A DNA stretch of 64,000 nt from the NCBI GenBank assembly GCA_000934665.2, contig KZ538334.1, positions 1 to 64,000 of the forward strand, given 5' to 3'. The notes under the pieces were generated by a model. The model worked only from the letters and a program-made list of their open reading frames with translations. It was not told the DNA's origin and did not search any database. Shown here piece by piece: positions 7,080-50,419 of this stretch (position 1 is its first letter; each line of letters starts with the position of its first letter). A program made the translations under genes and the position numbers. This DNA is from Catajapyx aquilonaris. Taxonomy: Eukaryota.

Positions 7080-7738
7080 CCTATAGGCTATAGGGGCAGA
7101 CACACTTACTTGAAGGGTTGGCGCCACTGATTGGGTGACCACCCGGGATGACAATCAGTTATTGGCATCCCTGTGTGACCAGCAGGGATGCCAATAACTG
7201 ATTGTCATCCCTGGTGGTCACCCAATCAGTGGCGCCAACCCTTCAAGTAAGTGTGTCTGCCCCTATAGCCTATAGGCATCCCTGCTGGTCACACAGGGGT
7301 GCCAACATGTATGGGAGCAGCCCTGTTGCTTGAGATATCATTGGCACCCCTGTGTGATCAGCAGGGATGCCAATATCTCAAGTATCCCCCCCCCTAAAGG
7401 AATGGTGGTTAGTAAAATAAATCAAACAAACAATCAATAATATCTCAAGTATGACTTGTCAAGTACTTGCGCGTGACTGCATGCAGTTTCGGCACCTACA
7501 TTCTGAACAAAATATTAAGCGTCATCGTTGGCACTCCTGCGTGATCATCAGGGGTACCAATGTTTCAAGTAACAGCCCAATGTAGCCAAGGTCACGCAGG
7601 GGTGCCAACATGTGTAGCAGCCCTGTTACTTGAAACATTGGCACCCCTGCTGGTCACGCAGGAGGGGCCAACGATGCTGCGTAATATTTGGTTCGGAATG
7701 TGGGTGCCCGAAACTGCGTACAGTAGTGCTGCAAGTAC
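7080..7738. repeat. Cluster of palindromes built on a TTGGCAYCCCTG-N9-CAGGGRTGCCAA module (hAT-TIR-like)
   Basis: 94-bp arms 7080-7173 and 7183-7276 with one mismatch; further inverted pairs about 7275-7373 and about 7463-7575/7623-7738. Confidence 0.85.
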
Positions 7739-13034: not shown

Positions 13035-13620
13035 CAAAATATGGCCCATGTATAGTCCAGGTCCGCCATTTTTGGTCCTGAAATGTCCACTGTTTATAAT
13101 CAGGATGCGCATCTAGTGTGTATAGGACGGTATAGGAAGAGAGTCGCCAACTTCTGACGTCTCTGATTGGCTGGAGTAATTTATATACTGATGTTTACGT
13201 GTGCTATGGAGGCTGCCATCTTGCGTTGATATGGAAATAGTGGACGGCTCTGACGTCACGGTCGACACCGATTGGGCTGGAGTGCAGCCAATCGGAGTCG
13301 GCAAAATTACTCCAGCCAATCAGAGACGACCAGTGACGTAGAAGTTGGCGACTCTTCCTCTTGGCTCTCTATAGTGTAGGTAGGTCAAATCTGAAATGTG
13401 AGGCAGCCATGTTTAGTCCAAAGTTGGGCCGCCATTTTTGGTCCGAAAGTGTCCACTAGTGCGCGTATGGCTGCGTGTATAGGTCTGTTAAATTGTAAAT
13501 GTGAGTACGGCCATGTTTAGTCCAAAGTTGGGCCGCCATTTCTGGCCCAGAAGTGTCCACTGCTTATCATGAAGCGCATGTAGGTTGGTCAAACGTGAGT
13601 GCGGCCATGTTTGGTCCAGA
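13035..13620 (+). repeat. Degenerate tandem repeat of about 100 bp (about 4 copies), interrupted by a MITE
   Basis: Core GCCATGTTTAGTCCAAAGTTGGGCCGCCATTT..GGTCC..AAGTGTCCACT at about 13406 and 13510; diverged or partial copies near 13045 and 13604. Confidence 0.75.
13132..13373. mobile_element. MITE-like element
   Basis: AGAGTCGCCAACTTCT...TCTGATTGGCTGGAGTAATTT is mirrored by AAATTACTCCAGCCAATCAGAGACG...AGAAGTTGGCGACTCT. Confidence 0.7.
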
Positions 13621-16939: not shown

Positions 16940-17070
16940 TAAATATCTAACAACGAATAACTAATATAAATATCTAACATAACGAATAACTAATATAAAT
17001 ATCTAACATAACGAATAACTAATATAAATATCTAACATAACGAATAACTAATATAAATATCTAACATAAT
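16940..17070 (+). repeat. 29-bp AT-rich minisatellite (about 4 copies) in a longer low-complexity tract to about 17700
   Basis: Unit AACGAATAACTAATATAAATATCTAACAT. Confidence 0.9.
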
Positions 17071-17309
17071 AAACAGCCAAAGCAGATAATATAATAGGTA
17101 ACAACAATTAGATAATATAATAGATAAACAACAAATAGATGATATAAATATCTAAGAAGTCGATTATAAGTAAGACCTGATGAATAATATAATGAATAAC
17201 AAATAATGTAAATGACTAATAGAATAGCTAATATAATGAGTAATGAATAAATCGATAATGTGATAGCTAATGAACAACTAATATAATTATTAGGCAGTGG
17301 ACGACTATA

Positions 17310-17520
17310 CAGGGTGTCTCAACTTTTTTGTCCGAACAATTACTATCGGAAATATTGCACTAAGCTGCTTATTTTTTTAAAGCAGTGACTTTCAACCAGT
17401 GATGCTTCCCCAGTTGAGGGATGTGCCAGGAATGTAGGGGGCATATTATTCTGGCTGCATACCTAGAAGATACATAGGCTTTTCCGATAACTGTTCGGAC
17501 AAAAAAGTTTTGACGCCCTG
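17310..17520. mobile_element. Tc1/mariner-type MITE
   Basis: TA|CAGGGTGTCTCAACTTTTTTGTCCGAACA...TGTTCGGACAAAAAAGTTTTGACGCCCTG|TA. Confidence 0.85.
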
Positions 17521-19361
17521 TATGTCATAAATAGTCAGTGACAACTAATAATGAATGGTCAGTAAACAACTAGTAATAAATAGTCAATGAACAACTACTG
17601 ATATAATAAGTATGTACATTAGTATAAAATAACTAATGCAGCAGGTATATAATAGCTAATGCAATAAGTAGCTAATAAATTAATTTGAAATTTGTTAATA
17701 AAATGGAATGAATATTAATAATAATATTTTTTCGAGATTTGGATGATAAGTTGAAATGGACTTGTTGAGGACGTCCACGTCCATTTATTTTTTTTCGGCG
17801 TGGGAAGAATTTTGGCGATTTGCGAAAATGAAGGTTGGAGTCAGTGTGGCGGACATCACAGGGCGTTGGCCCCTTCGAGTTTGATAGAAAGAAAAAGAAA
17901 AAAGAAAATGAAGAAGAAGAAGAAAAAATTTGTACAGAAGGTGGTAGGGACCGGTTCCCTTTCGGAAGGTGAACGAACCAAACCTCTCTCCTCATGAAGG
18001 GATGATGCTTGGCGGATTCCTCAGGTGTAAAAAGGATGACCTGCCTCAAGGTCGACATCTTCACCCACCCACCCACCAGTTATTTTTTCTTAAAAGTAAT
18101 GGCATCCGGAAGCTGAGGTTATTTTTGGGATGAGGTCACCTGAAGATTCCAACAGGTTGCTCGAATTTAATAAAAATTCTTGGATCGAGTGCGAGAAAGT
18201 TCAAAGGTCACGAATTTTTACACAGTGCAGCAGCACAATAGTTTGCGTGCCACCGGTTGGCAAAAGGGAGATTAGAAGCAAGGGGTGGAGGAAAAAAAAA
18301 CGTGAGAATGTGATTGTGTGTGTCCTAACCTCCCACTTCCCTCCCAACCCCCTTTGGAGGGTCCATCCGATCCACGATCACTGGTTGGCCTTTTTAAAAG
18401 TTACACACTTTTTTTTATACCTTTTTTGCATCATGCCATCCGGTCCGGAAAGAGGAAGGTGACCTGACAATTTTTTGAGCGCAATGCCAGATCAGCAATT
18501 AGCAATTTTCAACACCAGCGACATTGAGATTAATTATGCAAAGCATACACTTTTTTTTTCCACCTTGATGGTGATGGAAAAATATTTAACATGCTCTTTC
18601 AAGCAGATATCCCCCCCCTTTGGTAATGTTACGTGCTGTCGCTTCACGGTGGTTGGACCCATTTGTGTAATGTAATATCAAGTTAGTGGTGCCCTAATAT
18701 TGAGCGTGTAGTGGAAATTGCATAATCCTAGATGCATGAATGTTGTACTTGTGTCTAGGGAACGGGTTTCAAGCGGGATGACAAATTGCGGTGAATTGTG
18801 GCTGTATGGCTCACCCGGGCTGTTTCCACGAAAGGCAATGGTATCTTTTTGCCACATCATCTACCCCATGCATGCAGCTCACCTGAACTCATCAAGCGGC
18901 ATGCATGCAACGGGCTACAAAAATCCAGCTTTTCAAATCAAATTGCATTCTGCGGACATGGCAGGTGGAAAAGAGGAGCCAGTGATGAAACCATCTTGAG
19001 CTCTGGCAGAATGATAATAATTATTGTTTTGGAAAATGAGTGACACACAATATTGGAAGTACATGCAACTTGTCGTTCAGTTGGAGTGGTGCATAATGGG
19101 GACATATCATATAGCGTCTGCCGTCATTTTATCAGGGTGCACTGCCAAAATGATATGAGCAATTTTAATTGAAGGCCGTGTTCCCAGTGGTCTAGCCAGC
19201 TGAGAGCATGTGAACTTAACTCGGCAGTACTGTGTTTTGTTGCATGAAACTTGTTCCGTACAGGAGATTTTTATGGAACAAAGTAGTTTATTCTATGCAA
19301 TTAATGTTCCATGGAATATTGTCTAATGATTTCTGTTTCTCCTTACAGAGTGGATGGCGTG

Positions 19362-20558
19362 ATGGCAATGCGCTTGCGGTGCCTGCACTCATGTGTGCTG
19401 GCGCTGGTAGTGGGCCTGGTGCTCATCTACTCCACTTTCCTGTCCACGCAGCTTCCGCTGCGATACCTGGACCCCACTGCCTCCACTGCCTCTCCACCCA
19501 TAACAAATGCTGACTCGAGCAATGTCACCAACCCAGTTCCTTCCCCCAACAGCTCCCAGGCCCTGGGACTGGTGGCCAGGTCGGCACCCACCCAGTCGGC
19601 CGCCCCACCACCTCCAAAGGACAAGTCAGCAGTCAGAATGACCTCGAGGGTAGTCACCAGCGTGCGGGAAGTCACCCCGCAGTCTTCCGCACCTCCAGCC
19701 CATCAGTCCGCAAAGGCTGGCCAGAAACCGCTCCTGACGAAGCATCTGTACGAAGAGGGTCATCCAATCCCTTCGGCACATTTGTGTCCTGAAGAAGGGG
19801 CTAACATACAGGTGCTGATACTAGTGACTTCAGCACCGGGACATGCAGCAGCCCGGAGTGCCATCCGGATGACCTGGGGCCATGCAGCCATGCGCTCGGA
19901 TGTGGCGCTTGGGTTTGTGGTGGGTCGGACGGCCAACCAGACGGTGCAGCGGGCCATGGAAGAGGAGCATCACCTTTGGGGCGACCTGATCCAAGGAGCC
20001 TTCCTGGACTCATACGATAACCTGACGCTCAAGACGGTGTCGATGCTGCAGTGGGCGGCCGAGCGGTGCCCCGGTGCCCGGTTTATGCTCAAGACGGATG
20101 ACGATATGTTCATCCATGTGGACAACCTGCTGCAGTTTGCACGCAAGCACTCTGGTGGGGGGCCCTCCACGGGGAGGATCTACGGGCGGCTGGCGCAAAG
20201 GTGGAAGCCGGTTCGGAATGCAAAGTCCAAGTACTTTGTATCCACAGCCCAGTTTTCTGCAGCGGTCTACCCAGACTTCTGCACCGGTCCTGCTTACCTA
20301 GTGGAAGGAAGGTCATTTCGAGCGCTGTACAACGCAGCCCTGCAGGCCAGGTACCTCAAGCTGGAGGATGTGTTCGCCACAGGGATTGTGGCCCAGTCTC
20401 TGGGCATCCCTCGGGTGCATGCAGACGCTTTTGCCAACAAGAAGCTGCCGCTGCAAGCGTGCAAACTGCAGCGGGTCATCGCCACACATATGGTGCAGTT
20501 TCACGAGCAGTTCGACATCTGGAAGAAGCTGCAGGATGGACGGACACGATGCAAGTGA
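19362..20558 (+). CDS. Beta-1,3-galactosyltransferase-like (GT31), single coding exon, 398 aa
   Basis: Acceptor TTCTCCTTACAG at 19348; N-terminal TM helix, Ser/Thr/Pro stem, motifs RSAIRMTWG, DSYDNLTLKT, KTDDD, YPDFCTGPAY, LEDVFATG. Confidence 0.95.
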   Translation: MAMRLRCLHSCVLALVVGLVLIYSTFLSTQLPLRYLDPTASTASPPITNADSSNVTNPVPSPNSSQALGLVARSAPTQSAAPPPPKDKSAVRMTSRVVTSVREVTPQSSAPPAHQSAKAGQKPLLTKHLYEEGHPIPSAHLCPEEGANIQVLILVTSAPGHAAARSAIRMTWGHAAMRSDVALGFVVGRTANQTVQRAMEEEHHLWGDLIQGAFLDSYDNLTLKTVSMLQWAAERCPGARFMLKTDDDMFIHVDNLLQFARKHSGGGPSTGRIYGRLAQRWKPVRNAKSKYFVSTAQFSAAVYPDFCTGPAYLVEGRSFRALYNAALQARYLKLEDVFATGIVAQSLGIPRVHADAFANKKLPLQACKLQRVIATHMVQFHEQFDIWKKLQDGRTRCK

Positions 20559-22512
20559 AGCTTGAGAGCGCCGCAACTCCGGGGGACGCGACCGGTGGGA
20601 GGGTAGGCCAGGAAGCTAACCTGCTCCTTTTTTGCATGGTCGTTACTGTGCATCTCTGGCTGTAAAATCACTCACATTGTGGTCAAGTTACATGAAATTA
20701 AGCTGCAGCTGTTGACAACTGCAAGAAACGTGCAGGTACTTCCTGACCTACCGTCATTTCCCGCCGCCCTGCAGGACTCGGGTGCAAGAATCGCGTCCTC
20801 CAAAATTGCGGTGCTTCGCTTGGTGTTGAATCTCGGTGCTGCCCTCCTGTAATGCTTGTCAACACACAGAGAGCGTGTCACAAAGTGTGTTTGAATGTGC
20901 AAATGTGACACTGCCTGATGTAGTAAGTCCAGTGATTGTTGTGTTAATACCTTTCCCCCTGCCCCCCCAATTCTTCCTCTCTTCCTTTGCCAGGTCCACA
21001 AGTCATAAGCAAATCCCCTCTACACAAGATGTTGTTCGTGAAGCAAAACCTGGTGGAATGAGAGTCCAACTTGCGAAGGACTATTGCTCACCATTTTTTT
21101 TTTGTGTGGAGGTAAACGGATCAGATCGGACTTGCGATGGAATAAAATCCGCTTGATCCGAGGTAGGTTATAGAGACAAAAATCAAGGAAAAGATATGCT
21201 GTGTGTGCATAATGTATTTGGAATCTCCCCGAAGCATCTGTTTAGCAATATGGAAATCAGGATCTCCGTGCATAAAAAGAAATTTCGCTCCCAACTTATT
21301 CCTCAAAAAAAAAAAAAAAGAAAGAAAGGAGAGAGAAAAAAAAGTTTTTGCTGCTGGTAGTTTTGTAATTTTGTATTCATTTAAAACCATGTCTGGAAGC
21401 TAGTTTTCTGCATTGCTGCGAAAGGTGTATAACTAGTTCACAACCCCTGTTTGAGAAAGTATGTCGTAAAAATTATTGGAGTCGCAATGTCAAAGTCTCG
21501 TGACAATTGAATTTGTTGGAAAGTAATATTTCACTGCAATTGTTGCGTCGATGCTATGGCCGTGATTTGATCTTATGTTATTCTCCACACAGAGTCTTAC
21601 GTGCAATTTCATGCGAATAATAGTGTTGGGCAATACCATGCCGCATCCTTACAGCAAGAGTAATTAATACGCATGGTAATTAGTTTTTAGCTACTACTTG
21701 CGATTATGGGGAATGATCAAGTCCTAACTAAATGAGATTATGGTAGACACTTTTACTCATTAGAATACTCAAGTCATGAAGCTCAACATTTTGGAGGGTG
21801 ATAAGGAGTGACAATAAGTTTTAGAAAAACCTGTGCCGCTTACCCTACTTACTCCTAAGAGTGGTTTCGAATCTCAAGTAGAAAAATGGTACGAGACGAG
21901 TACCTGCGCACAAGTTCTGACAAGTTGAAATTAACTTGCAGTAAAAAATTTGTCCAGAATCTGTGCCTTTCATAGCACTTGGTTTATGAAATTGCACATA
22001 ATTGCTGTTGTACTTTGTCTCTCTGAGAATAAGATGGATCGTGGCATAGGCGGAATGGTTGCGGCCCAAAGAGTCAACGGAACTGTTGCAGTGTAGTGAG
22101 AAGTGATATTATTTTCCAACAAATCGCAAGTCGCATGGCAAGGGTTTTTAAAAAAATTGCTGTACTTATGAGATTTCTGTTATTTTTTTGGAGTGAACAA
22201 TTTGCTTGTCACATGCTGGTGACACATTGCGCCAAACATTACTCGTCACACATTCCAGTCCCCCCCACTCGTTGTTTTTGAATGTGTGAAAATTGCCATA
22301 CTGTGTACTTACAGTTATGTTTTTTTGTTTTTTTTTAAACAGGCAATGTACATGATATGCGTCAAACAGTGCAATTAGGCGATGGGATGAATCCAGACAG
22401 GAAACATCGCTGTGATAGAGATTATTAAAAGTATTTGCCTCGTAAAGTCCCAATCGTCCCCATACCATTTCCTTATGTTCTTCCGATGATTCTTACTACT
22501 TTNCCCCCCCCA

Positions 22513-23601
22513 ACACATGATACACATTCCTCTCATCTGCTGCCAATCTAGACACCTCCCCCAAGAAACTCTCACCGAAATGTACTATTGAAATTATTAC
22601 TATCTATAACTTGACTGCCTGTCTGAAAAGGACTCAAATCAACGACTCAAAAAAAGAAACCTCGATCTTGAGAACTGAGAAGAGAACAATGAAAGTGAGC
22701 CCGACCGGACAAAACTTTTTATCATTATATACTCTCCTCTTTCATTATTTATCAAAGATGCGTTTCATCGGCAAAAGTCTCTGGAGTAAAGACTCAGCTT
22801 GACACTTAACAACGTCGTTTCATTTCACTCTCGATCCGAAAATTAATGTTGTGTACAGTTTCAGCCTCAGGTAAGTAGTGGAGGTCAAATGTGGTCAACG
22901 GCTGGAGCCAAGTAATTAAAACACCCACATTTATAGGCCTAGACTGTATTGGGAGTTATGCTCACATTATTGCAGCTGAACATAAAGTGCATTGTAAAGA
23001 TGAATCCCATGGTCAAAAAAATATCTCTAGAACACTATTGGGTAGATACGCTGAGACAATCTTCATGTATAAAATCTCAAAAGAAATGCACTGCTTGATT
23101 TTGGTGCAGGATGAGTAGCAAAAAATGGTGTCGTTTCTATTGGCCTGAGCATCTAGAGTCAGAGGCTTTTCATTCATGAAAGTGTCGGGAAGAGCCTTGT
23201 GCATGACTTTTGCTTCCTAGGTGCTTGGTTCTTGTCTCCCATCAGATGGTCCGACAGTCCTAGCGCATCTGTGGCTGGGAATCACGCTCGGAATATGTGC
23301 GGATATGCCTCTCGGAACTGAAGAGTAAAAAGGGTCAATTAACGACTCTCACTTTTAACCATGGTGTTATCTTGCAAATGTACCTTTCGTATCCGATAGG
23401 CCCTATCCTTAACCCTGGGATCCTTGAGGATCTGGTCCAGCAGCTCGACCAGTGCAGCATGTGACCCTGCTTCCTACTGACACTCGAACTCCTCTTGGGT
23501 CACTCTGGCGCCGAACACCGTGGAGTCCATTGAAGACCAGCTCCTCTGCAGCTGCACAGGTGTAAGTGACACATCCTCTGATTATAGTTACCTTGCTACA
23601 A
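22513..23601 (-). pseudogene. Duplicated 3' end of DEPDC1 (last two exons plus 3' UTR)
   Basis: Direct repeat of 26673-27521 with an in-frame AAG-to-TAG change near 23475, an 18-bp deletion in the last exon and about 325 bp of extra sequence (22554-22878); upstream exons are absent. Confidence 0.9.
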
Positions 23602-23715
23602 TGGAACACAATCACTACTGCATTACATATACTTGTATATTGTTACATTGCCTTAATTTTTTTTTTTAATAATCTGGGGTAGAGCTTGACCTCATCTGAG
23701 GTAAGCATCACGGAC

Positions 23716-23996
23716 CTTTATTTATTATGTCAAGTACATTTTTGAGCCTTTATATGTAGCGCCCAGGCCCACGGGCAGGATGACAGGAGGGGATGTGCAA
23801 GGTGCAGTGCAATGCCTTATCCGTGGTCATTTTTAGTGAACTCCCCCGGGTTGTTTAGTCTGTGGATATACCACCCGAGACGAAGCCAGAGGTGACCCTG
23901 AACTCTGCATGAGATGAAGGGGGTGTCCCCGGGTTGGGATCGAACCCAGGACCTTAACATCCGAGGGCGCAGACGTTACCGCAGCACCACTCCGCC
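23716..23996 (-). mobile_element. tRNA-derived SINE
   Basis: Minus strand GGCGGAGTGGTGCTGCGGTAA (A-box-like)...GGGTTCGATCCC (B box), followed by a non-tRNA body and an A-rich end. No TSD seen; 3' limit approximate. Confidence 0.7.
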
Positions 23997-24225
23997 TTAG
24001 CAATGTTTCTGAAGTTGTGATTAACGCCTGCCACTCTCTCGAAATAGCTTCGCCTCATATCTCATGCACCAAGTGAGAGTCATCATTGGTCCAAAGTTTC
24101 TGATACATTCAGCATAATGAAGAAGATGGTGGTGGTTGTTTTTTATATTAATGTTAGGAAATAATTTCTTAAAAAGAATGTCATCGTCACGAATTATTTC
24201 ACGCAAGTAGGACTACATCATGCCT
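23997..24225 (-). mobile_element. Frameshifted CMC/EnSpm-like transposase C-terminal fragment
   Basis: ...FKKLFPN...HHHLLHYAECIRNFGP...WCMRYEAK / YFERVAGVNHNFRNIAK matches the recalled HxxxHY..I..FGP...W.MRFEAKH..FK......NFKNI pattern. Confidence 0.7.
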
Positions 24226-24837
24226 GTCTATTTGCAAACTACCGGGCTGTTCTGGGCTACCAGACAGAAGAGCAAGTCCCTTATTTGTTTCTGTGGTCAT
24301 GCACTTTTGGTCGGAATGTTCCCTCTGCAGGTGATTCATCATAATGTGAATCAAATTATCTCGTGACTCACCTCAGCTCATCTTCTCGATTGCCTCCTCT
24401 GGTAGTACAAATAATTTTATCCTGCAAAATTTGAGCATGTATTAACAAAACAATCACTTGAATTACTACATCAGGCAGTGTCACATTGGCACATTCAAAC
24501 ACGACGCTTTGTGATGCGCTCTCTGTGTGTTGAAAAACATAACGGGATGGCACCAGGCAGCACCAAGATTCAACACCGAGCAAGGCGCCGCAATCTTTCG
24601 GGGACGAGATTCTAGCACCCGAGTCCTGCAGGTGGTCAGAAAGTACCTGCACGTTTCTGGCAGTTGTCAACAGCTGCAGCTTAATTTGATACATCTTGAC
24701 CACAATGTGTGTGTGACAATATAATTTACAGGGAGAGATGCACGCAGTCACGACCATGCAAATAAGGCACAAGGTTATAGCTTCCTGGCTACCCTCCCGC
24801 TGGTCGCATCCCCTCAGAGTTGCAGCGCTCTCAAGCT

Positions 24838-25887
24838 TCACTTGCATCGTGTCCGTCCATCCTGCAGCTTCTTCCAGATGTCAAACTGCTCGTGAATCTG
24901 CACCATATGTGTGGCGATGACCCGCTGCAGTTTGCACGCCAGCAGCGGCAACTTCTTGTTGGCAAAAGCGTCTGCATGCACCCGAGGGATGCCCAGAGAC
25001 TGGGCCACAATCCCTGTGGTGAACACATCCTCCACCTTGATGTACCTGGCCTGCAGGGCTGCGTTGTATAGCGCTAGAAAAAACCTCCCTTCCACTAGGT
25101 ACGCAGGACCAGTGCAGAAGTCTGGGTAGACAGCTGCGGGAAACTGGGCTGTGGATACAAAGTACTTAGATTTTGTATCCCGAAACGGCTTCCACCACTG
25201 GGCCAGCTGCCCATAGATCGCGGAGGGCCCCCCACCAGAGTGCTTGCGTGCAAACTGCAGCAGGTTGTCCACATGGATAAACACGTCGTCATCCGTCTTG
25301 AGCATAAACAGGGCACCGGGGCACCGCTCGGCCGCCCACTGCAGCATCGACACCGTCTTGAGCGTCAGGTTATCGTATGAGTCCAGGAAAGCTCCTTGGA
25401 TCAGGTCGCCCCAAAGGTGATGCTCCTCTTCCATGGCCCGCTGCACCGTCTGGTTGGCCGTCCGACCCACCACAAACCCAAGCGCCACATCCGAGCGCAT
25501 GGCTGCATGTCCCCAGGTCATCCGGATGGCACTCCGGGCTGCTGCATGGCCCGGTGCTGAAGTCACTAGTATCAGCACCTGTATGTTAGCCCCTTCTTCA
25601 GGACACAAATGTGCCGAAGGGATTGGATGACCCTCTTCGTACAGATGCTTCGTCAGCTGGCCAGCCTTTGCAGGCTGATGGGCTGGTGGTGCAGAAGACT
25701 GCGGGGTGACTTCCCGCACGCTGGTGACTATCCTCGAGGTCATTCTGACTGCTGGCTTGTCCTTTGGAGGTGGTGGGGTAGTGGGGTGCAGGTATCGCAG
25801 TGGGAACAGGAAGGTGGAGTAGATGAGCACCAGGCCCACTCCCAGCGCCAGAACACATGAGTACAGGCACCGCAGGCGCATTGCCAT
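24838..25887 (-). CDS. Inverted GT31 paralog, 349 aa, intact ORF (expression unknown)
   Basis: 24439-25908 is an inverted copy of 19341-20950 with four in-frame deletions (3, 41, 3 and 2 codons); KTDDD and EDV motifs retained. Confidence 0.75.
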   Translation of the reverse strand: MAMRLRCLYSCVLALGVGLVLIYSTFLFPLRYLHPTTPPPPKDKPAVRMTSRIVTSVREVTPQSSAPPAHQPAKAGQLTKHLYEEGHPIPSAHLCPEEGANIQVLILVTSAPGHAAARSAIRMTWGHAAMRSDVALGFVVGRTANQTVQRAMEEEHHLWGDLIQGAFLDSYDNLTLKTVSMLQWAAERCPGALFMLKTDDDVFIHVDNLLQFARKHSGGGPSAIYGQLAQWWKPFRDTKSKYFVSTAQFPAAVYPDFCTGPAYLVEGRFFLALYNAALQARYIKVEDVFTTGIVAQSLGIPRVHADAFANKKLPLLACKLQRVIATHMVQIHEQFDIWKKLQDGRTRCK

Positions 25888-26419
25888 CACACCATCCACT
25901 CTGTAAGGCGGCTCCTGCCCCAGGCCTCAGACAAGCTCCGCAGGGCCCTGTCAAGATGTTTATGTTGCCATTAGAACAGCACATTCCTGGTGGTTCGTTG
26001 TTCCAATTTTTTTAGCCCCGCAGCATTTACTTGGATCATCGCACCAATAGCAATGGAATCGTCAGTGGCATAGTCGCTTTCTGGGTCATAGCCTGTTGAT
26101 TCCACTGTCGATATGCATTAGTTCTTACCTTGCCTTGTCTGGCTGCTTGAAGTTTGAGAGGCACCGAGAAGCAGACAAGGGACAGGCAAAGAGTTCTAAT
26201 ACCTAGAGGAAGTACTACCATTAGCCAGGCTGAGGCATCTAGGTCATATTGTTGTTCCGACAGTTGTCCAGCAACTGGGACGACAACCAATAATGACAAC
26301 ACTGGGACAGCAATTAGTCCAATAATGTCAGGGGTACGCAATCTTTACTTGGGTCATATTGTTGCCTTCTTGACATTTCGCGCCAAGTGCTCTCACTAGG
26401 TATTAGCGCGTGAACCAGC

Positions 26420-26670
26420 CGGTTGCGTTTCGGATTCTAGCGCTTGAAAAAACGAAATTCGCTATGGGAGCGTTTTCGCAAATATCGGCCAGACATGTCC
26501 AGCTTCATTCTAAGAGTCATTCAAAAAAATCTTAAAATGGTCCAAGTTTGAGAAAAATCAAAATCGAGATTCGAGCGCCAATTTTTGATTCTCGTGAGTT
26601 AGTATGACCACCTCATAGAGCGTTAAAATAGGTGTCCAACACATCAAGTTTAGAATTTGTACGCATCCTC
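26420..26670. mobile_element. Possible DNA-transposon terminus at the duplication breakpoint
   Basis: Ends ...GTACGCATCCTC (GAG/CTC terminus, Sola-like) within 2 nt of where the DEPDC1 3' repeat begins. No partner TIR found; pattern recognition only. Confidence 0.3.
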
Positions 26671-27048
26671 TTACACATGATACACATTCCTCTCATCTGC
26701 TGTCAATCTAGACACAAATGGAGGTCAAATGGCGTCAACACCTGGAGCCAATTAATTAAAACACCCACATTACATATAGACTGTATTGAAAGCTATGCTA
26801 ACATTATTGCAGCTGAACACACAAAGTGCTATAAAGTTTAATAAATGCATTGTAAAGATCGTACTAAAGGAACAAGAACTGAAAACACTTCGCCCAGTCC
26901 CATTGTATGGTCAAAAAAAATATCGCTAGAACACTATTGGGTAGATACGCTGAGACAATCTCCATGTATAAAATCTCAAAGAAATGCACTGCTTGATTTT
27001 GGTGCAGGATGAGTAGCAAAATGGCGTCGTTTCTATTGGCTTGACCCT

Positions 27049-29480
27049 CTAGAGTCGGAGGCTTTTCATTCTTGAAAGTGTCGGAAAGAGCCTTGTGCAT
27101 GACTTTTGCTTCTTAGGTGCGGTAATAACCCCGTTGGCTTGGTTCTCCTCTCCTATCAGATGGTCCGACAGTCCTAGCGCATCTGTGCCTGGGAAGCGCT
27201 CTCGGAATATGTGCGGATATGCCTCTCGGAACTGAAGAGTAAAAAGGGTCAATTAACCACTCTCACTTTTAACCATGGTGTTATCATGCAAACGTACCTT
27301 TTGTATCCGATAGGCCCTATCCTTAACCCTGGGATCCTTGAGGATCTGGTCCAGCAGCTCGGCCAGTGCAGCCCGTGACCCTGCTTCCTTCTGATGCTCA
27401 AACTCCTCTTGGGTCACTCTGGCGCAGAACACCGTGGAGTCCATTGAAGACCAGCTCCTCTGCAGCTGCACGGGAAAATAAGTGTAAGTGACACGCCCTT
27501 TCAAGAGTTACGTTGCTACAAGAAAACTGTCGCTATCAGAAACACACGCTATGAAGTACACCGATCCTAATGTGGGTATGTGCAAGATTCTACAGGGGTA
27601 AGTTCTACTTTACACCACTCAGGACTTACGACGCATTGGGTTCGGCTTCCTTGGTCAGAGTTGCAATCGCCTAGGCTTTAAAAAGTGGACGTCGTCCAAT
27701 TAGTTAGGTGCATAGTTAGTGCGGTTAGTAGTGCTGTCAGCTGCAACTAAAGGCCACGTTTTAAGGTCAAATCCATACCTTGGACCCTGAGGCTGCAACC
27801 TCCACCAGTCGCTGTCTGACTGCTGGACCCAGGTCTCCCGGTGGGTTGAAAACAGCGTCGTGCCCTTCAGCCAGGAATCGCAGCAGTGCTCTGCCAGCAA
27901 CCATTGTTGCGTCCTCATCTTCCCTGTCTGCATTTGGCCTCAGCACCGCCTTAGCCAGGAGTGGACCAGCTCCGGCTCTTCTCCCTGGGGGCGGATCTGC
28001 CTGCAAGCGCGACACCATGCGTGCTAGAAGATGCAACTGACGTCTCCTGTCTGGCGGAAGCAGCAGGAGGAGCAGCTTTACAGTCCGTTCGAACCTGCCT
28101 TTGTCCGATACTTGTGGCGTCGGAGGACTTTGGCTTACATAGGGTTCTGATACGTCCGATCCGTCCTCATCAGATGCATCGTATTGCGAAACTGAAGCGT
28201 CATATTGTGACACTGAATGTGCCGTGTGATAGGAGGATCCGACTGATGTGACCGAGTCTGGTGACGTCGAACGTTGATGTCTTGCTGCTTCAACAAGCTG
28301 CTCCAGTGTGGCCACCGCTTCGTGTACAGCCTCTTCGTCCATCTCCATGGCCGGATTGACATACCCGCCTGAACGACTCCTGAGGTGTCGGGCGGCATTT
28401 GGCGCTGACACTCGGGCCACCACATACCCAGGAGGAGGGTTTACGAGGCGTGTGACCGGTTCAGCTAATGCAAAGCATGTTTCTATAACCGGCGAGGCGG
28501 TTCGTGGCGGAGGCGGTGGATGTGGATAAGGCGGTGCCTCCAGAGCATGGCGAATGGCATGGATAAACAGAGGCTGCAGAGAGGATGGCACCAATGGGTT
28601 GGGTAGAGACGACAGGTGCTCTTCCACAACACGGAGGACATCGCCACGAAATCCTGGATACTCCCCAGACTCGGCTGAAAACATAACAAGTTCAGTACTC
28701 TTAAGACTGGTAATATGTTAATACATACCATGGGCAAGGCAAGTCATGGCAGACAGCAGCCAATGCGGTAGGCTGTCCGTGTCGCCCATTGCAACTCCTC
28801 CGCCACCAATGGTCCTGGTGGCATTGACCATAATCCAGTGTCCGCTGGCTGCAATCCCCTTAGCCTCAGCCACACCCGGACATTTCGATAGCCTTTCAAG
28901 CACCTCTTCCTTCCAGGCAGCGTGGATCAAGTGGGACGGCAGCCTCTGACATGCGGATTCTGGACTCAACTCCACCTGCTCTTCCGCCCCACCTGAGTTG
29001 ATGGGCAGCAACGGAGGCCTGGATGGCGACAGCAACATTCCAGGCCGCTTCTCCGTAAACCGGTAGAGCTCCCCGTTGTCCCCCAGCTTAGTCCCATGCC
29101 TTCCTTTGCTCCGGTGTACAGGCCGCAGCAATCCCGACTTCTGAAACTTGATGAGCAGCTGCATGGCCTGTTGTCTGGTAACTCCCGGTCCAAAATCAGG
29201 CAACGACTGCAGGTGGGTCTGAAGCCACGTGACGGCTTCAGATGCGGTGAAGCATTCCTCGTGCGTCTTCATCCGCCACCAGTGACGCTTCAGAGGCATA
29301 CCAGTTCTGAAGCTACTCATAATCTCATTCCACTGTAAGTTGGTGGGGAAGGAGAGGGGGGAAAAAAAATGGTAAAGAGTTCAGCTCAAATTTTTTGTTC
29401 GATCGTGAGACAATAATGCGTACCAGTTGTGTGGCCTTGTACGGCCCCGAGATGCTCTTCTGCCTCTGCATCCCTGCCAT
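27049..29480 (-). CDS. DEPDC1: DEP domain-containing protein 1 (DEP plus RhoGAP-like)
   Basis: Exons 29480-29424, 29332-28729, 28674-27779, about 27465-27298, 27231-27049 (possible small exons in 27560-27670): GPYKATQLWNEIMSSFRTGMPLKRH...CFTASEAVTWL...FGPGVTRQQAMQLL...LPHWLLSAMTCLA...FCARVTQEEFEHQK...LAELLDQI...FREAYPHIFRERFP...KSLRL. Confidence 0.9.
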
Positions 29481-29869
29481 TCGTATCCTCCTCCAGAATC
29501 CCCTAGGCTCATGAGAGGCCGGCCCAAGTTCAAAAGCACAGGACGCAACAACAACCAACCGATCTTGTAACGGCCACCATTTTTCAAACACGAACGGGAA
29601 AGCGACGTTGCCACATTTCCGACAACAGCATTGCCAGAGACCCGCGCTGTTGCCATATTACACACGCTCATTAATTATTGACGCCTGTAGTTATAATCAA
29701 GTTCGCTAAATTCACAATGCTTAAGGACATGTGCTGATTTATTAATAGTTTTAACATTTTCTGATGTTCTCAGCTGCATTCCTTGCGCAATCCAACATGG
29801 CGGCCATTCGATCCACACATTTTTGAACGCTCAAGATTCGAACCCCCCTTTTGTTTTTGCACCGAAAAG

Positions 29870-32266
29870 ATGAAGTTCAGAGCCAAGCTGTACGATTCCG
29901 AGGCGATCAAGCAGTTCACACGTACGTCTGGGGCCACGTCTGGTACTAATTGTAGGCGGGAAGCAACGAAAAATACTCATAAATTATAGTAGTGACGTCG
30001 TGTAGCCTAGTTGTTCTCACCAGCAACATGTTGAAAGTGAAGCAACAATCACTGAATCACAGCTAATAATAGAGCTAATCTAATAATAATACTGTAATGG
30101 TAAATGTAATGGTAGTTGAGTAGGGAGTATGTTGTAGCTACAACAATACATAATACTAGTAATACTGGTGATAATAATGGTAGCGATAATCGTTGTAGCT
30201 AATAATATTAGTGACAGGAGCTGTAGCTAATAATAATGGTTTTAGCTAATAGAAATAATAGTTATAGCTAACAACAATAGTTATAGCTAATAACAACAAT
30301 AATAGTTATATCTAATAATAATAAAACTTGTAGTTATAGCTAATAACAACAACACTAATAGTTATAGCTAATAACAACAACACTAATAGTTATAGCTAAT
30401 AACAACAACACTAATAGTTATAGCTGATAACAACAACACTAATAGTTATAGCTGATAATAACAATAGTTATAGCTGATAACAACAACACTAATAGTTATA
30501 GCTAATAATAACAATAATTATATTGTAGGTAATAATAGCAGTAATAATTTGTTGTAGGTAATAATAATATAGTTGTCTAGTTGCAGATTTAAAATGAAAT
30601 GTGCTGCCGTTAAATAAATGTGGTTTGTCTGTAATGATGTGTCCTCTTTATATGTTCAGACCTGATATCGGTGATATCACGACTGTCCAAGACGTGCTGC
30701 TTGCGGATCACGAAGGACGTGATGTACTTTATACTGAGTGAGCGGGGAAACCTTTTCTCCAGCCCAAGCTTGTGGTGCGAGTTGGAGCCTGAGCACTTCT
30801 TTCCCGAGTATGCTATGGCGGGAGTGGCGCCTGAGAATGACGAGATACATTTGTCGTTCAAGCCGGACATGCTGGTGAAGGTGCTTGGTACTCTCAGGCC
30901 AACTCTTGGAGCCAGGTCCATCAAGATTAGGCTCACCAGGAAGCAAGTGCCTTGCCTCACGTTTGAGATTGATGTGGCAAGTGCTCAGCCTTCTTACTGT
31001 AGCCGTGCATCGATCCTAATTATGCCTTTATTGCAGTCTCCCGTTGAAATGACTTCCCGCATCTGTACACATGACGTTCCAGTCACTATAGTTTCCAGGA
31101 AGTGCTGGGATGAGTACAAGAAGCCAATTGTGCCTCTTTTTGATGTGAGTCAGTCTGTTATTACTCGTTTTGTTATTTATTACTCCAAATGCCATTGCTA
31201 TATATAAGGGGACAGGAGGATATCAAAGTGTTTTAACAATCTTTCATTTCCAATATAGTTGAGTATTACCATGCCTGATCTGACCAAAGCAAGGCGTGTA
31301 GTGGAGAAGATGAGGAAAATTAGTCCACGCCTAACTATCTTTGCCAACCAGGACGGAAAGTTCGTCATGACTCTTGACGAGGATGATGTGAAGCTCAATG
31401 TCCACTTCAGGGACTTACGCACCTTTATTGCAGACCAAAGCCAAGGCAGTAAGCCCTGATCCTTGTGTGTTTCTCCAGTCGAGTCTTATGTCCACATACT
31501 CATATATGCTGTGACATGGAATTAATTAAAGTTATATGATATAAGTTTAATTAATTCCATGTCAAACAAGACTTTCACAGCGTGTCATTTTCCTATCATC
31601 AAAGGAAAATGACAGTCCATAAAATACTTGCTTTCTTTCTCAGCAAAGTAGAAAGAATCTTTCATGATGTTTTGAGCACCACTTATCATTTCTTCCTCAT
31701 TGTTACTTTAATTTACCCATTCAATATACGACTCAGCATGTATTGCATTACATCTTGTAATACCTCTGACTTGCACTGTTTCAGGTGGTGATGTAGTAAA
31801 GGCTACTGAAGTTACGATTGAGTCAAAGAAATTAGAGCAATTCTTTGCCAGTGATGCAATGAATCCTGCAAAGGTCGTATGCAGTAAGTATTCAAACTCA
31901 CAGACTCTTGCAGGGGTGTTGTGGAAAAAGGTGATAACCCACAAAAGTGTTTTTCAGGAGAGCGAATTTTAGTTTGCACTCTCTTAACTAATCATAGGGA
32001 ATGCGGGTTTTGATCTAGTCCGTGTTGCCGTCTCGTGCGTGATACGTGAACTTGGAGTATACCAAACTGTTTGTCATGTCTTTTTACGTAGTTGCTATGT
32101 GTTTAGGTCAAAAATGACTAAAATGAAGGTTGTTGCGTTTTTCCATCACACCCCTCAATTGACCCCACCTTTCTTTGCAGACATAGTTGAGAAGAGGCTA
32201 CTGCACCTGCTGCTCATTCATGATGGTATAAACTTGGAGTATTACCTACCAGCACTTGCTTCTTAA
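29870..32266 (+). CDS. HUS1: Checkpoint protein HUS1 (9-1-1 clamp)
   Basis: Exons 29870-29921, 30660-30976, 31037-31144, 31259-31448, 31785-31883, 32181-32266: MKFRAK...SRLSKTCCLRI...LWCELEPEHFFPEY...CTHDVPV...VVEKMRKIS...LEYYLPALAS; AATAAA overlaps the stop. Confidence 0.95.
30060..30580 (+). repeat. AAT-rich low-complexity tract with a 28-bp minisatellite in HUS1 intron 1
   Basis: Unit AATAACAACAACACTAATAGTTATAGCT repeated over about 30340-30510. Confidence 0.9.
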
Positions 32267-36568: not shown

Positions 36569-38937
36569 TCAGCTGGTACCCAAACAGTAGCAATACTTCT
36601 TCAGTTCGTAATCTTCCACACACTCACTCTGCCCTTCGTATGTGTTTAGTCTGCTGACAGGTCCCAGCATCTTCATCTCAGATCTGTCCACCCCAACAGT
36701 CGCCTCGAAAACCGCCTTTCCAGGCAATGTCTGGAAGCTGACGAGGTAATCAGATATGACCTTCGACCCCGACTCCTCGTGGGACACCCGGCAGGTCACC
36801 ACTTTATCCAGACTCAATTTGGCGCACCTTGCATCATCCTTAGTGTCGTTATTAATTCGGTCCAGCAAGAATCGCGCCACACGCATGACCTCAGGTGACC
36901 TGGGGTCAACCTCCTGGGACTCCTTGCAGGTGCACCAGTGAGGGTCAATCCCGGCTTGAGGACACGTGCGGTCGACAGGGATCGGATGAAACAGGGTAAA
37001 TCCTCTCCCACACGACATGGGGTCAAACCTGTTGAGCAGCACTGAGGTCAAAGTGCAGTGTAGGTCAAACGGTGAGGTCAGCCGCCTTGTATTAGTCCTC
37101 AGATTGGCCATGACCTCCGGATGTTTTGACCTGAACCATGGCGGCACCCACACCATGAAGAAGGGCATCCTCTCTTCCAGCCATCCCACGTACGTCTTCC
37201 GGATGTCCCCAAACCGAATCCCATGGTCGCTGAAGAACACAAGCATGGTCCTGTTGAGCGTGACCTCGTTGGAGAACAACCTCGTGAAGAACTGGAGGTA
37301 CGGACCCTCAGCCAACGGGGCCGTGTTGACCGTATTGTGCGTCAAAGTGCTGGTCCAGAACCACCCGAAGAACTTCTTCCGATGGTACTTGGACACGAAA
37401 TCTTGCGCGTACTGCAACACGACATCCACGCTGAGTCTGTCGCCGACGCACACTTTCAATGTCTCCTTGGTCAAAGTGGACAGCTCCTGTAGCAAATCAT
37501 AAAATTTTGTAAGCATTTTACAGTATAGCTGTAGCCGTATCGGTACCTTCTCGACAGCCAGGTTGAACGGACGTGGATAGTAGTCCGTCGGAGGTATTAC
37601 GAACCCAGTCTTCTTGAATGTGAACGTACCAAGCGTCGGTGCATCTTCGGCGAAGGCAGTGACGTACCCTCTGTCGCTGAAGTTCCTCCAGATGAACGGA
37701 CAGGCATCGAAGGACACGTTGGAGCTCTTCCAGCACACCTTCTTCAGCTGGTTCTGGTCCAATCCAGTCAGCTCTACCACCACGTTTGGAAACGTGTTGT
37801 CTCCAACCTGAAACGTCAGACGTAACCGCCACTCTCAGGGTCGTGCGAGGGGCAGTGGTACTACATGCACCTGATGACTCGCCCCGGACAAGTTGCTCCG
37901 GGCGATTTGTCTCATATGCCAGGTGATGTAAATCCCCGATATGAGGTGAAGACACTCACCTTGACGTACCCGTAGAGTTCCAAGGCCCCTCTTTGCCGGA
38001 GGTAGTCAGCTGTCTTGTTTATGGCCCTCTGAAGGTTGAGTCTGGACACCGAGTCGATTCCCACCAGTAATATGCTCAGAGGAGGAGGATCATCCTCCTC
38101 CTCTTCCGGTCCTCCCTCTTCCGTACCAGGAGGAACCCGAGACGATGTTCTCAGCTTTTTGTCGAGGACGAACGCAAACCCGTTCTTGTATATCTGCCTT
38201 TTCTGGTACTTGCACACGGCCAATATGAACTCATCATACACTGTCGTACCGTCGCGTTCAATCTTCTTACACTCTTTGCCCACACTGTATAACAATACAA
38301 CATAATTTAAATACCAGATGTACAATATGGTATGAAGTAAATAATACATACGAGTACATGCTGTCAGCCTTAGTGTTGTAATGCTTCAAGTTCTGGGATC
38401 CCCTCCGGAGTACCCGGTAACAACAATACAGATGACTTTCGTTTTTAACCTGGTAATGTCTGTAGGACGTCACGTTGATTTTCACCTGAGACTAGATCCA
38501 GCCTTTACTTCTCTTTTTTTTATATACATACCATACGTTTAGAGAGTGTTGCAAAACTACTTACGTCATGAACATGCAAAAGTGGCGGTTTTGATGAGCA
38601 TCTGAATTTCGGTTCATCCTTCAGAAACTCACGGATTGAAGGATCGAAAGGGTTCAGATCCTGAATCTTGCATCCTGGGGTATGAAGGATGTATCCTGAT
38701 GGGACATTTTCAGGTGATCTTGACCCAGTCTCAACATTCCTTAGGTGCTGGTGAAAGGCTGGGAAATAAAGTGATATCACATGCTGACAACATTTGGATG
38801 TAGTAAAAAAAAAGAGGGTCAAGTATTGTACCTTGTGTGGTCATCAGAATCTTGTGGACATCCACCATGTAGGTGACCAAAATGATGACTGTGGCTAGGA
38901 TTATCAGGCGGATTATCCGGGGTGAATTTACAATCAT
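36569..38937 (-). CDS. DUF229-family (alkaline phosphatase/sulfatase-like) type II membrane protein
   Basis: Exons 38937-38832, 38758-38565, 38485-38352, 38284-37960, 37807-37547, 37486-36569 in frame; motifs TPGCKI, GIDSVSRLN, KVGDNTFPN, GYVTAFAED, PPTDYYPRP, FSDHGIRFG, EERMP, CPQAGIDPHWCTC, KKYCYC. Confidence 0.9.
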
Positions 38938-41983: not shown

Positions 41984-44955
<2,972 letters not shown>

Positions 44956-49939: not shown

Positions 49940-50419
49940 CACTGTAAACCACATAGAAAACAGCATCACCCCATGGAGCATCAATTTTTAATGCTCTGGT
50001 AATGTTTTTGTGATGCTAAAAGCATTGCAAGAGCATTAAAATCATTCCACGCATTAATTAAAAATTAACATGCTAAATCATTAATTTATTAAATCATTAA
50101 ATCATTAATTTTAATGCTCTTGTAATGCTTTTGTGTTGCTAAAAGCATCTAAAAGGCATTACGCGAGCATTAAAATTGATGCTTTTGAATTTTAAAATTT
50201 AAATGGATTTTTACTGCTTTTGAAATGCTTTTAGCAACGAAAAATTATTGCAAGGGCATTACAAATTGACGTTTTTTAAAAATCTTAATTAATTTTTAAT
50301 GATTTTAATGCTCTTGCAGTGCTTTTAGCAACACAAAAGCATTAACAAGATCATTAAAAATTGATGCTCCGTGGGAGACTCACCAGTGATGCTCTTTTAA
50401 TGCTTTGCGGTTTGCATTG
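49940..50419. mobile_element. CACTA/CMC-like MITE
   Basis: TA|CACTGTAAACC...GGTTTGCATTG|TA, subterminal inverted arms and many TTTTAATGCT/GCATTAAAA internal repeats. Confidence 0.7.

Follow-up and report, generated by a model that had tools for sequence, protein, structure and literature searches.

How a second, complete copy of a glycosyltransferase coding exon came to lie in inverted orientation between two direct copies of a neighboring gene's 3′ end is the question raised by a locus of Catajapyx aquilonaris. The locus was analyzed within a window of 64,000 nt, which comprises positions 1 to 64,000 of the forward strand of contig KZ538334.1 (assembly GCA_000934665.2). Gapped and ungapped self-comparison of the whole 64-kb window gave the segment order A - B - C′ - X - inverted A - Y - C, in which A carries a glycosyltransferase gene of family GT31, C is the 3′ end of a gene with a DEP domain, C′ is a decaying copy of C, B is present once, and X and Y are unrelated DNA filling the junctions. 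This is the arrangement of a duplicated-normal-inverted/duplicated (DUP-NML-INV/DUP) rearrangement. We regard it, with modest confidence, as a fairly old DNA-level complex duplication produced by one double-template-switch event, a single event being the most economical reading.

Structure of the Rearranged Locus

The parental copy of segment A (19341-20950, plus strand) consists of 8 nt of intron, the coding exon of GT31 copy 1, and 392 nt beyond the stop codon, as delimited by alignment. Its derived copy lies inverted at 24439-25908 (minus strand) and was identified by self-comparison, by alignment, and by contigs bridging both of its ends. Segment C (26673-27521, minus strand) is the functional copy of the DEP gene 3′ end according to RNA-like contig joints, splice sites, and reading frame, and C′ (22513-23601, minus strand) was recognized as its decaying copy from the alignment and from stop codons in the exon copies. 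Segment B (20951-22512), the single-copy or “normal” part, has no second copy in the window. The 837-bp junction fill X (23602-24438) contains a short interspersed nuclear element (SINE) and a piece with an approximately 94% identical copy elsewhere in the genome, and the 764-bp junction fill Y (25909-26672) is mostly a mid-copy repeat as judged by depth.

In the gapped self-comparison, segment A was recovered as two inverted matches, 19341-19492 against 25908-25767 (85.5% identity over 152 columns) and 19603-20950 against 25778-24439 (89.6% over 1374 columns, E = 0). Segment C was recovered as two direct matches, 22513-22555 against 26673-26715 (97.7%) and 22879-23601 against 26719-27521 (82.3% over 812 columns including gaps, E = 0). 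An ungapped repeat finder recovered the same A and C blocks, and the gapped comparison detected no large repeats in the 64-kb window besides these two pairs. The aligned copies of A differ by substitution at 95 of 1444 sites (6.6%), with 192 gap columns, and those of C at 56 of 715 sites (7.8%), with 96 gap columns; the alignments place the segment boundaries to within a few bases. A word-7 search of B, X, and Y against the window yielded no second copy, only two weak low-complexity matches, both of B.

The original prediction for this DNA had proposed the same topology at the same coordinates, with two non-adjacent segments duplicated, one of them inverted, and B left in single copy, and it had named a self dot-plot as one way to check it. 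That check was run as the whole-window self-comparison, which found both repeat pairs and bore out the topology by the gapped and ungapped methods alike; the word-7 search and the depth of B agreed with B being single copy.

Read Support

Four sequencing runs were compared over positions 17500-29500. X1-X3 are DNA runs from one sample, and X5, which belongs to a different study, behaves as RNA. DNA contigs bridge three of the four inner boundaries with 0 differences, namely 24438/24439 (contig 24345-24854), 25908/25909 (25701-25988), and 26672/26673 (26536-26955). The depth of X1 contigs across the copies was 27.1 (C′), 31.8, 27.7, and 26.8 compared with 30.9-32.8 in the unique flanks, which is full and not half depth and speaks against a collapse or haplotig artefact. 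Unitig ends coincide exactly with the stretches where the copies share 31-mers, and the seven copy-2 variants of the block 19651-20168 sit in a separate X2 contig, both versions of the block being present in the reads. The earlier argument against a simple assembly duplication, which had been drawn from the divergence of the copies, is thus joined by separate contigs that bridge three junctions at flank-level depth. As far as the reads of one sample show, the rearrangement is confirmed as real.

Some features of the read data speak for an assembly artefact, that is, a haplotig or a mis-joined allelic copy placed in tandem. Among the DNA contigs listed, none bridges the C′|X boundary (23601/23602), and the N at 22503, which precedes the B|C′ boundary by 10 nt, is crossed by none of them; furthermore, X1-X3 may be the assembly's own source, and support for the junctions comes from this one sample only. 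The N is a homopolymer-length ambiguity and not a gap at the repeat edge, because all three single Ns of the window (11210, 22503, and 61464) lie inside G or C homopolymer runs. An artefact is nevertheless very improbable when the copies differ by 6-12% with many indels, one copy is inverted with unique junctions of its own that contigs bridge, each copy stands at full depth, and the reads contain the 19651-20168 block in both versions.

The Parental Glycosyltransferase Gene and the Nature of the Copy

GT31 copy 1 is a complete gene with a single coding exon (19362-20558, plus strand) that runs from the Met at 19362 to the stop at 20556-20558 and encodes 398 aa. The predicted protein has a hydrophobic N-terminal anchor, a stem rich in Ser, Pro, and Thr, and a full Galactosyl_T catalytic domain (Pfam PF01762; E value, 1.1e-44) in which DDD occupies residues 246-248. 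Among solved structures, the nearest is that of beta-1,3-galactosyltransferase 5 (PDB 8zwp, human B3GALT5; E value, 3.4e-40). A search of 5.8 billion proteins returned 157 homologues of copy 1 at E <= 0.001; the best 120 of these are either unnamed or arthropod “B3GALT5-like” proteins with 31-56% identity, the strongest at 40-56%, and no protein nearly identical to copy 1 or copy 2 was found among these best 120 of 157. Since neither copy occurs in this collection and the best matches reach <=56% identity, sampling of the lineage is poor.

Copy 1 is expressed and is spliced to an upstream exon. An RNA-like X5 contig covers 19346-20595 with 0 differences and carries 166 further letters that map outside 17500-29500, which indicates an upstream non-coding exon. 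The splice acceptor of the coding exon is CCTTACAG (19341-19348), the last 8 nt of the intron, and the homology with the inverted copy begins precisely there, at CCTTACAG|AG. Segment B is probably the long 3′ untranslated region (UTR) of copy 1, since an RNA-like X5 contig covers 20577-22486. The depth of this contig (53.7) is about five times that of the contig over the copy 1 coding sequence (11.7), and the DNA contig depth of B (32.8) is the same as in the flanks. RNA cover was also seen to extend from B into a piece that is specific to C′, where one contig “goes back 207” (22734 to 22528); the cover over 20577-22734 may stem from one long 3′ UTR, from a transcript of its own, or from a small tandem variant.

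The inverted segment is a DNA-level copy and not a retrocopy, because its homology starts 8 nt inside an intron and ends 392 nt past the stop codon within the 3′ UTR, with no poly-A. That the copy amounts to essentially one exon and starts close to an exon boundary would suit reverse transcription of the glycosyltransferase mRNA. A processed retrocopy was rejected all the same and has a negligible probability: the last 8 intron nucleotides (CCTTACAG) are included, the 166-nt upstream exon part of the RNA contig is missing, and the segment stops inside the 3′ UTR with neither a poly-A at 24439 nor a flanking target-site duplication.

The DEP Gene and Its Dead Partial Copy

The DEP-domain gene (26891-29424, minus strand; Pfam DEP E value, 1.6e-15) is situated on the same strand as glycosyltransferase copy 2 and upstream of it; segment C is the 3′ end of this gene. 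The gene is expressed in the RNA-like run, where four spliced joints were found. One X5 contig lies on 29099-28729, 28674-27779, 27465-27298, and 27231-26891 with 0 differences, and another connects 29332 with 29424; each of the four stretches that are skipped has CT..AC ends, equivalent to GT..AG on the minus strand, and consensus splice contexts agree. The joints 27231>27298 and 27465>27779 fall within and beyond segment C. The segment accordingly contains the last two exons of the gene, 26891-27231 (with the stop near 27050) and 27298-27465, the 66-nt intron between them, the 3′ UTR, and 56 nt of the intron that comes next.

Naming of the gene by homology gave 0 matches at E <= 0.001 for the 316-aa middle open reading frame (ORF) in the length window searched, and an Atlas comparison offered a DEPDC7/DEPDC1B-like assignment (score 0.94 to the DEPDC7 cluster) that serves as a lead only. 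The introns of the gene are very short (54, 66, 91, and 313 nt), in keeping with a locus of very short introns from an invertebrate animal, and the 54-nt intron holds an in-frame stop, so that two long ORFs resemble one interrupted frame.

C′ contains two pseudo-exons, at 23384-23551 and up to 23317, whose changes are mostly non-synonymous. As both exon copies carry premature stops, C′ is a dead partial copy of the last two exons of the DEP gene. The earlier suggestion that the neighboring gene had been captured therefore does not hold in that form, as only these two exons, now with stop codons, were copied from the neighbor. Likewise, the exon-like scraps that had been placed in the spacer have their true counterparts inside C′ and not in X. 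C′ also carries an extra 323 bp (22556-22878) with no counterpart in C, and a sensitive search of this piece against the window gave no match. The empty site reads ...CTAGACAC|AAA|TGGAGG..., and the last letters of the piece are GGTAAGTAG. The difference may stem from an insertion in C′ or from a deletion in C, and no target-site duplication is evident around the piece.

Age of the Copies and Number of Events

If A and C were duplicated together, their copies should be of one age, and very different divergence times had been named in the original prediction as evidence against a single event. Kimura two-parameter (K2P) distances computed from substitutions only were 0.127 +/- 0.020 for the 3′ flank in A, 0.095 +/- 0.018 for the 3′-UTR part of C, and 0.083 +/- 0.011 for C overall. 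The A 3′ flank (43/370 differing sites) and the non-coding part of C (37/386) were indistinguishable (Fisher p = 0.41), as they were when synonymous sites outside the conversion block described below were pooled into the comparison (Fisher p = 0.20). Thus, with p = 0.41 in the neutral parts, the test for unequal ages does not reject the same age for A and C, and hence a single event.

At the joins, the end of C′ (= 27521) leads, beyond X, to 24439 (= 20950, the distal end of A), and 25908 (= 19341, the proximal end of A) leads, beyond Y, to 26673, the proximal end of C. From this topology we infer a single event and a template-switch mechanism, which may be pictured as follows. The ancestral state would have been a pair of convergent genes, a plus-strand GT31 gene with its long 3′ UTR (A followed by B) and a minus-strand DEP gene with its 3′ end in C. 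During a single event of replication or repair, the template would have been switched twice. The growing strand would first have traversed A, B, and C from left to right and reached a site in a DEP intron that corresponds to 27521. A jump onto the opposite strand at A's distal end (20950) would then have led to a backward copy of A as far as 19341, and a return jump to the proximal end of C would have let synthesis go on, giving A - B - C′ - inverted A - C. The fills X and Y would be partly later repeat insertions (the SINE and the mid-copy repeat), and part of them may have been copied from other loci during the event. Thereafter, C′ would have died, and inverted A, which kept the coding exon and its acceptor, would have stayed open, evolved faster than its parent, and exchanged sequence with it by gene conversion. 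The product would be one of three isomeric DUP-NML-INV/DUP structures that can be interconverted by recombination between the inverted copies, and the original product could have been the form known as dupINVdup (duplication-inversion-duplication).

Several observations pull the other way. Taken over its whole length, C has diverged less than the A flank (57/758 vs. 43/370, p = 0.026), as two events would predict, although a lower divergence of C is expected because half of it is exon and UTR of a working gene. The junctions hold 837 and 764 bp of unrelated DNA, and because of this fill no clean microhomology can be read at them. Finally, the polarity could in principle be the mirror image, with inverted A - Y - C ancestral and A - B - C′ derived.

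The difference in overall divergence is also a reason to consider two or more independent events, for example an insertion of inverted A beside C and a separate tandem duplication of C, in either order, with repeats filling the junctions later. The roughly 0.8 kb of foreign DNA at each junction points to several insertions in the region, and gene conversion shows the region to be recombinationally active, both of which would suit such a history. It would demand, on the other hand, that the second event broke at the very ends of the first insert; A and C are indistinguishable in non-coding divergence (p = 0.41), and the topology is exactly that of two template switches. We therefore hold independent events to be rather unlikely, though they are the most credible of the competing explanations, and return to the double template switch as the preferred origin.

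Junction Fills and the Question of a Transposon

Junction fill X contains a tRNA-derived SINE at approximately 23758-23997 on the minus strand. The element shows a B-box complement near 23940, and the contig depth over it sums to about 1e5 compared with about 30 in the flanks. Rfam (E <= 1) and tRNA scans of 17000-30000 gave 0 matches each, and the element was recognized by its B-box complement and depth, which confirm the SINE that had been proposed for the spacer. Another part of X, 24080-24300, is also represented by a second contig that shows about 12 differences and nearly the same depth (about 41 of 76), indicating a copy of approximately 94% identity elsewhere in the genome; this copy could have been the template for the junction fill, or the piece could be a low-copy element. 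Y is mostly a mid-copy repeat, with a summed depth of about 1800-2800 compared with about 30 in the flanks. The parental breakpoints have no match in X or in Y. A weak resemblance to the start of inverted A was seen in the first 22 nt of X, with a score reached by 2/300 shuffles in one of nine junction-homology comparisons, and the remaining 8/9 comparisons were at shuffle level.

An EnSpm-like fragment, a possible transposon end, and a transposon-driven composite insertion had all been suggested for this region. Under such a scenario, X - inverted A - Y would be a composite element (CACTA/EnSpm, Pack-type, or Helitron-like) that captured the gene and inserted in the 3′ end of the DEP gene. 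The high-copy SINE in X, the mid-copy repeat that makes up most of Y, the second genomic copy of 24080-24300, and the CACTA-like string near the start of X (...CACTACTG...) can be cited in its favor. Yet no terminal inverted repeats of X - inverted A - Y, of X, or of Y were detected (the best scores were reached by 53-190/200 shuffles), and short target-site duplications around X - inverted A - Y were likewise at shuffle level. A Pfam search (E <= 1) with 16 small ORFs of X, Y, and B gave no transposase or other family at the curated cut-off; four ORFs had weak, unrelated matches of 12-14 bits (best E value, 0.03), X contributing one sub-threshold match among its four ORFs (14 bits vs. a cut-off of 27) and Y none. 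In addition, a transposon insertion does not make a C duplication of 850-1089 bp, and the copied gene is complete and its source only 3.5 kb away. A terminal-inverted-repeat transposon with a captured gene was accordingly set aside, as neither terminal repeats above shuffle level nor a transposase at the Pfam cut-off was detected and the flanking duplication is approximately 0.85-1.1 kb and not a few bases. None of the three transposon suggestions was borne out, and we judge capture by a transposon improbable.

An Intact and Derived Second Glycosyltransferase Reading Frame

GT31 copy 2 is an intact reading frame of 349 aa plus stop (24838-25887, minus strand) that runs from 25887 down to the stop at 24838-24840, with DDD at residues 199-201. 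It matches Pfam PF01762 with an E value of 1.4e-43 and aligns to the B3GALT5 structure 8zwp (E value, 9.5e-40) across the whole catalytic domain, the KTDDD motif included. Against the Galactosyl_T profile, copy 1 scored 153 bits and copy 2 149 bits (cut-off, 23), both over profile positions 2-194 of 195. Like B3GALT5 and the arthropod “B3GALT5-like” GT31 proteins, then, both copies match the domain from end to end and keep DxD (here DDD) and EDVF, but they differ from those proteins in an identity of 40-56% and, in copy 1, a long stem rich in Ser, Pro, and Thr. The DxD motif, the metal/nucleotide-sugar motif of GT31 enzymes, is KTDDDMF in copy 1 and KTDDDVF in copy 2, aligned to KTDSDMF of 8zwp; the EDVF motif is likewise present in both copies.

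The two copies show 27 aligned amino-acid differences, and their coding sequences differ further by indels of 9, 123, 9, and 6 nt, all four in frame. The stem of copy 2 has lost 47 residues, 44 of them in the Ser/Pro/Thr-rich part. In copy 1, CCCCAC(T/C) borders at either end the 123 nt (41 codons) deleted from the stem of copy 2 (19470-19600 vs. 25779), which suggests that the deletion was microhomology-mediated or arose by slippage.

The polarity of the copies was assessed with 120 outgroup proteins. At the 27 differing sites, copy 1 has the commoner outgroup residue at 22 and copy 2 at 4, with 1 tie. Informative sites, defined as those with >=60 outgroups aligned and at least one of the two residues at >=20% frequency, favored copy 1 as ancestral by 10 to 1 (binomial p = 0.012; 11 sites, 16 dropped). 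Copy 2 is the derived (daughter) copy, because the outgroup polarity is 10:1 and because copy 1 is seen spliced and expressed.

Possible signs of constraint on the coding sequence were found in the pairwise comparison of the copies. The ratio of non-synonymous to synonymous divergence (dN/dS) was 0.284 (dS 0.112, dN 0.032; N vs. S, p = 9e-6), and 0.305 outside the conversion block, where dS was 0.161. All four coding indels (4/4) are divisible by 3 compared with 7/18 in non-coding A and C, and the chance that all four would be in frame if they had all arisen in an unconstrained copy is about 0.02. The simulated probability that no stop would appear after 36 neutral substitutions was 0.31.

The claim that the rearrangement created a new glycosyltransferase gene stands in part. 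The intact 349-aa ORF with all family motifs and the pairwise dN/dS of 0.28 agree with it, and from these a function of copy 2 is inferred; that copy 2 is a new, functional gene is plausible on such sequence evidence. It is less secure in other respects. Nearly all amino-acid change falls on the copy 2 branch (10/11 informative sites), the dN/dS of that branch, calculated by hand, is about 0.5 and not significantly <1, and the changes in copy 2 include highly conserved positions, though they are conservative there (M249V, R276Q, N286D, L332I, and L334V in copy 1 numbering). It may thus be that copy 2 is a young pseudogene and that chance and gene conversion have kept its frame open.

Copy 2 has lost the parent's promoter, 5′ exon, polyadenylation site, and most of the 3′ UTR. 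It keeps the splice acceptor and lies approximately 1 kb downstream of the last exon of the DEP gene on the same strand, a position that suggests a route to transcription. As we read the sequence, a direct splice from the penultimate DEP exon to copy 2 would be out of frame. The only RNA-like run, X5, has no cover on 24317-25519 and says nothing either way on transcription of copy 2. A bolder scenario would be that the double template switch gave birth to a working second glycosyltransferase. Its expression would depend on the DEP gene, through read-through or alternative splicing, or on a promoter in Y, and it would diverge under relaxed or new selection with its catalytic core guarded by gene conversion. 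The 3.5-kb segment between the inverted copies may also flip in the population between DUP-NML-INV/DUP isomers. We consider this full scenario doubtful.

Probable Gene Conversion between the Inverted Copies

Within A, a 438-nt tract (19734-20171, paired with 25219-25656) shows only 8 differences. Its distance of K = 0.0185 (1.8%) compares with 0.067-0.077 in the neighboring coding parts and 0.127 in the flank, and the tract differs significantly from the rest of A, which is elsewhere about 7-12% different (Fisher p = 2e-7). With synonymous sites only, the counts were 5/108 in the tract and 22/156 outside it (p = 0.013). Constraint alone does not explain the tract, since synonymous sites show the same drop. 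These results suggest that the inverted copies probably exchanged sequence after the duplication and that the tract is the product of gene conversion.

Inverted pairs of paralogues can be homogenized by gene conversion, as in the arms of palindromes. The A copies resemble palindrome arms in that the central tract is far more similar (1.8%) than the flanks (7-12%), at synonymous sites too. They differ from them in the shortness of the tract (about 440 nt), in the marked divergence of the arms outside it, and in the unequal status of the two genes.

Comparison with Known Rearrangements

Brand et al. are said to have described, in 2015, dupINVdup rearrangements, or paired-duplication inversions. 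The present locus has the same two junction types, and the dupINVdup isomer is convertible to the present structure by recombination between the inverted A copies. In contrast to dupINVdup, B retains the parental orientation relative to both flanks, and the middle is not inverted in the assembly.

DUP-NML-INV/DUP alleles are described at the human PLP1 locus on Xq22, where distal-distal and proximal-proximal joins define the class and three structures are possible (PMC6902434). The pattern is attributed to iterative template switching, by fork stalling with template switching (FoSTeS) or break-induced replication mediated by microhomology (MMBIR) (PMC6902434, PMC9851044), the latter having its own model paper (PMC2621351). 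The name DUP-NML-INV/DUP given to the locus in the original prediction is apt, as its junction logic fits the definition in PMC6902434. The locus shares with the PLP1 cases two duplicated segments around a copy-neutral one and the same junction types, and it is like one of the PLP1 structures in having the proximal segment inverted between two direct copies of the distal segment.

Relative to the PLP1 alleles, four differences are apparent. The scale here is in kilobases (1.6, 1.6, and 0.85-1.1 kb) compared with tens of kilobases to megabases. The variant is an old germline one in an invertebrate, 6-12% diverged, unlike a de novo disease allele. The joins, each with about 0.8 kb of fill, show neither an inverted repeat pair nor clean microhomology. 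Last, an intact paralogue has been left behind.

Complex duplications of this type are known mainly as fresh human disease alleles. Judged by titles, the DUP-NML-INV papers listed are human clinical or methodological, and none in a further listing is titled on gene birth, which is no proof of absence. The locus is a compact, fully sequenced case that has persisted to approximately 10% divergence, and it displays the leftovers of such an event: a dead partial gene, a complete open copy stripped of its regulatory ends, and ongoing gene conversion. It may thus serve as a worked example of gene duplication by template switching, although it would not surprise a specialist.

Neighborhood of the Locus

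Four further genes lie in the window: HUS1 (30638-31207, plus strand), a gene of the DUF229 family (36569-38385, minus strand), RINT1/TIP1 (42802-44574, plus strand), and a laminin beta-like gene (55149-61264, plus strand). The laminin fragments of the window are <=67% identical to any database protein. Self-comparison of the window also showed short, diverged tandem or local repeats with 67-85% identity at 7287-7649, 13374-13618, 30234-30567, and 49986-50364.

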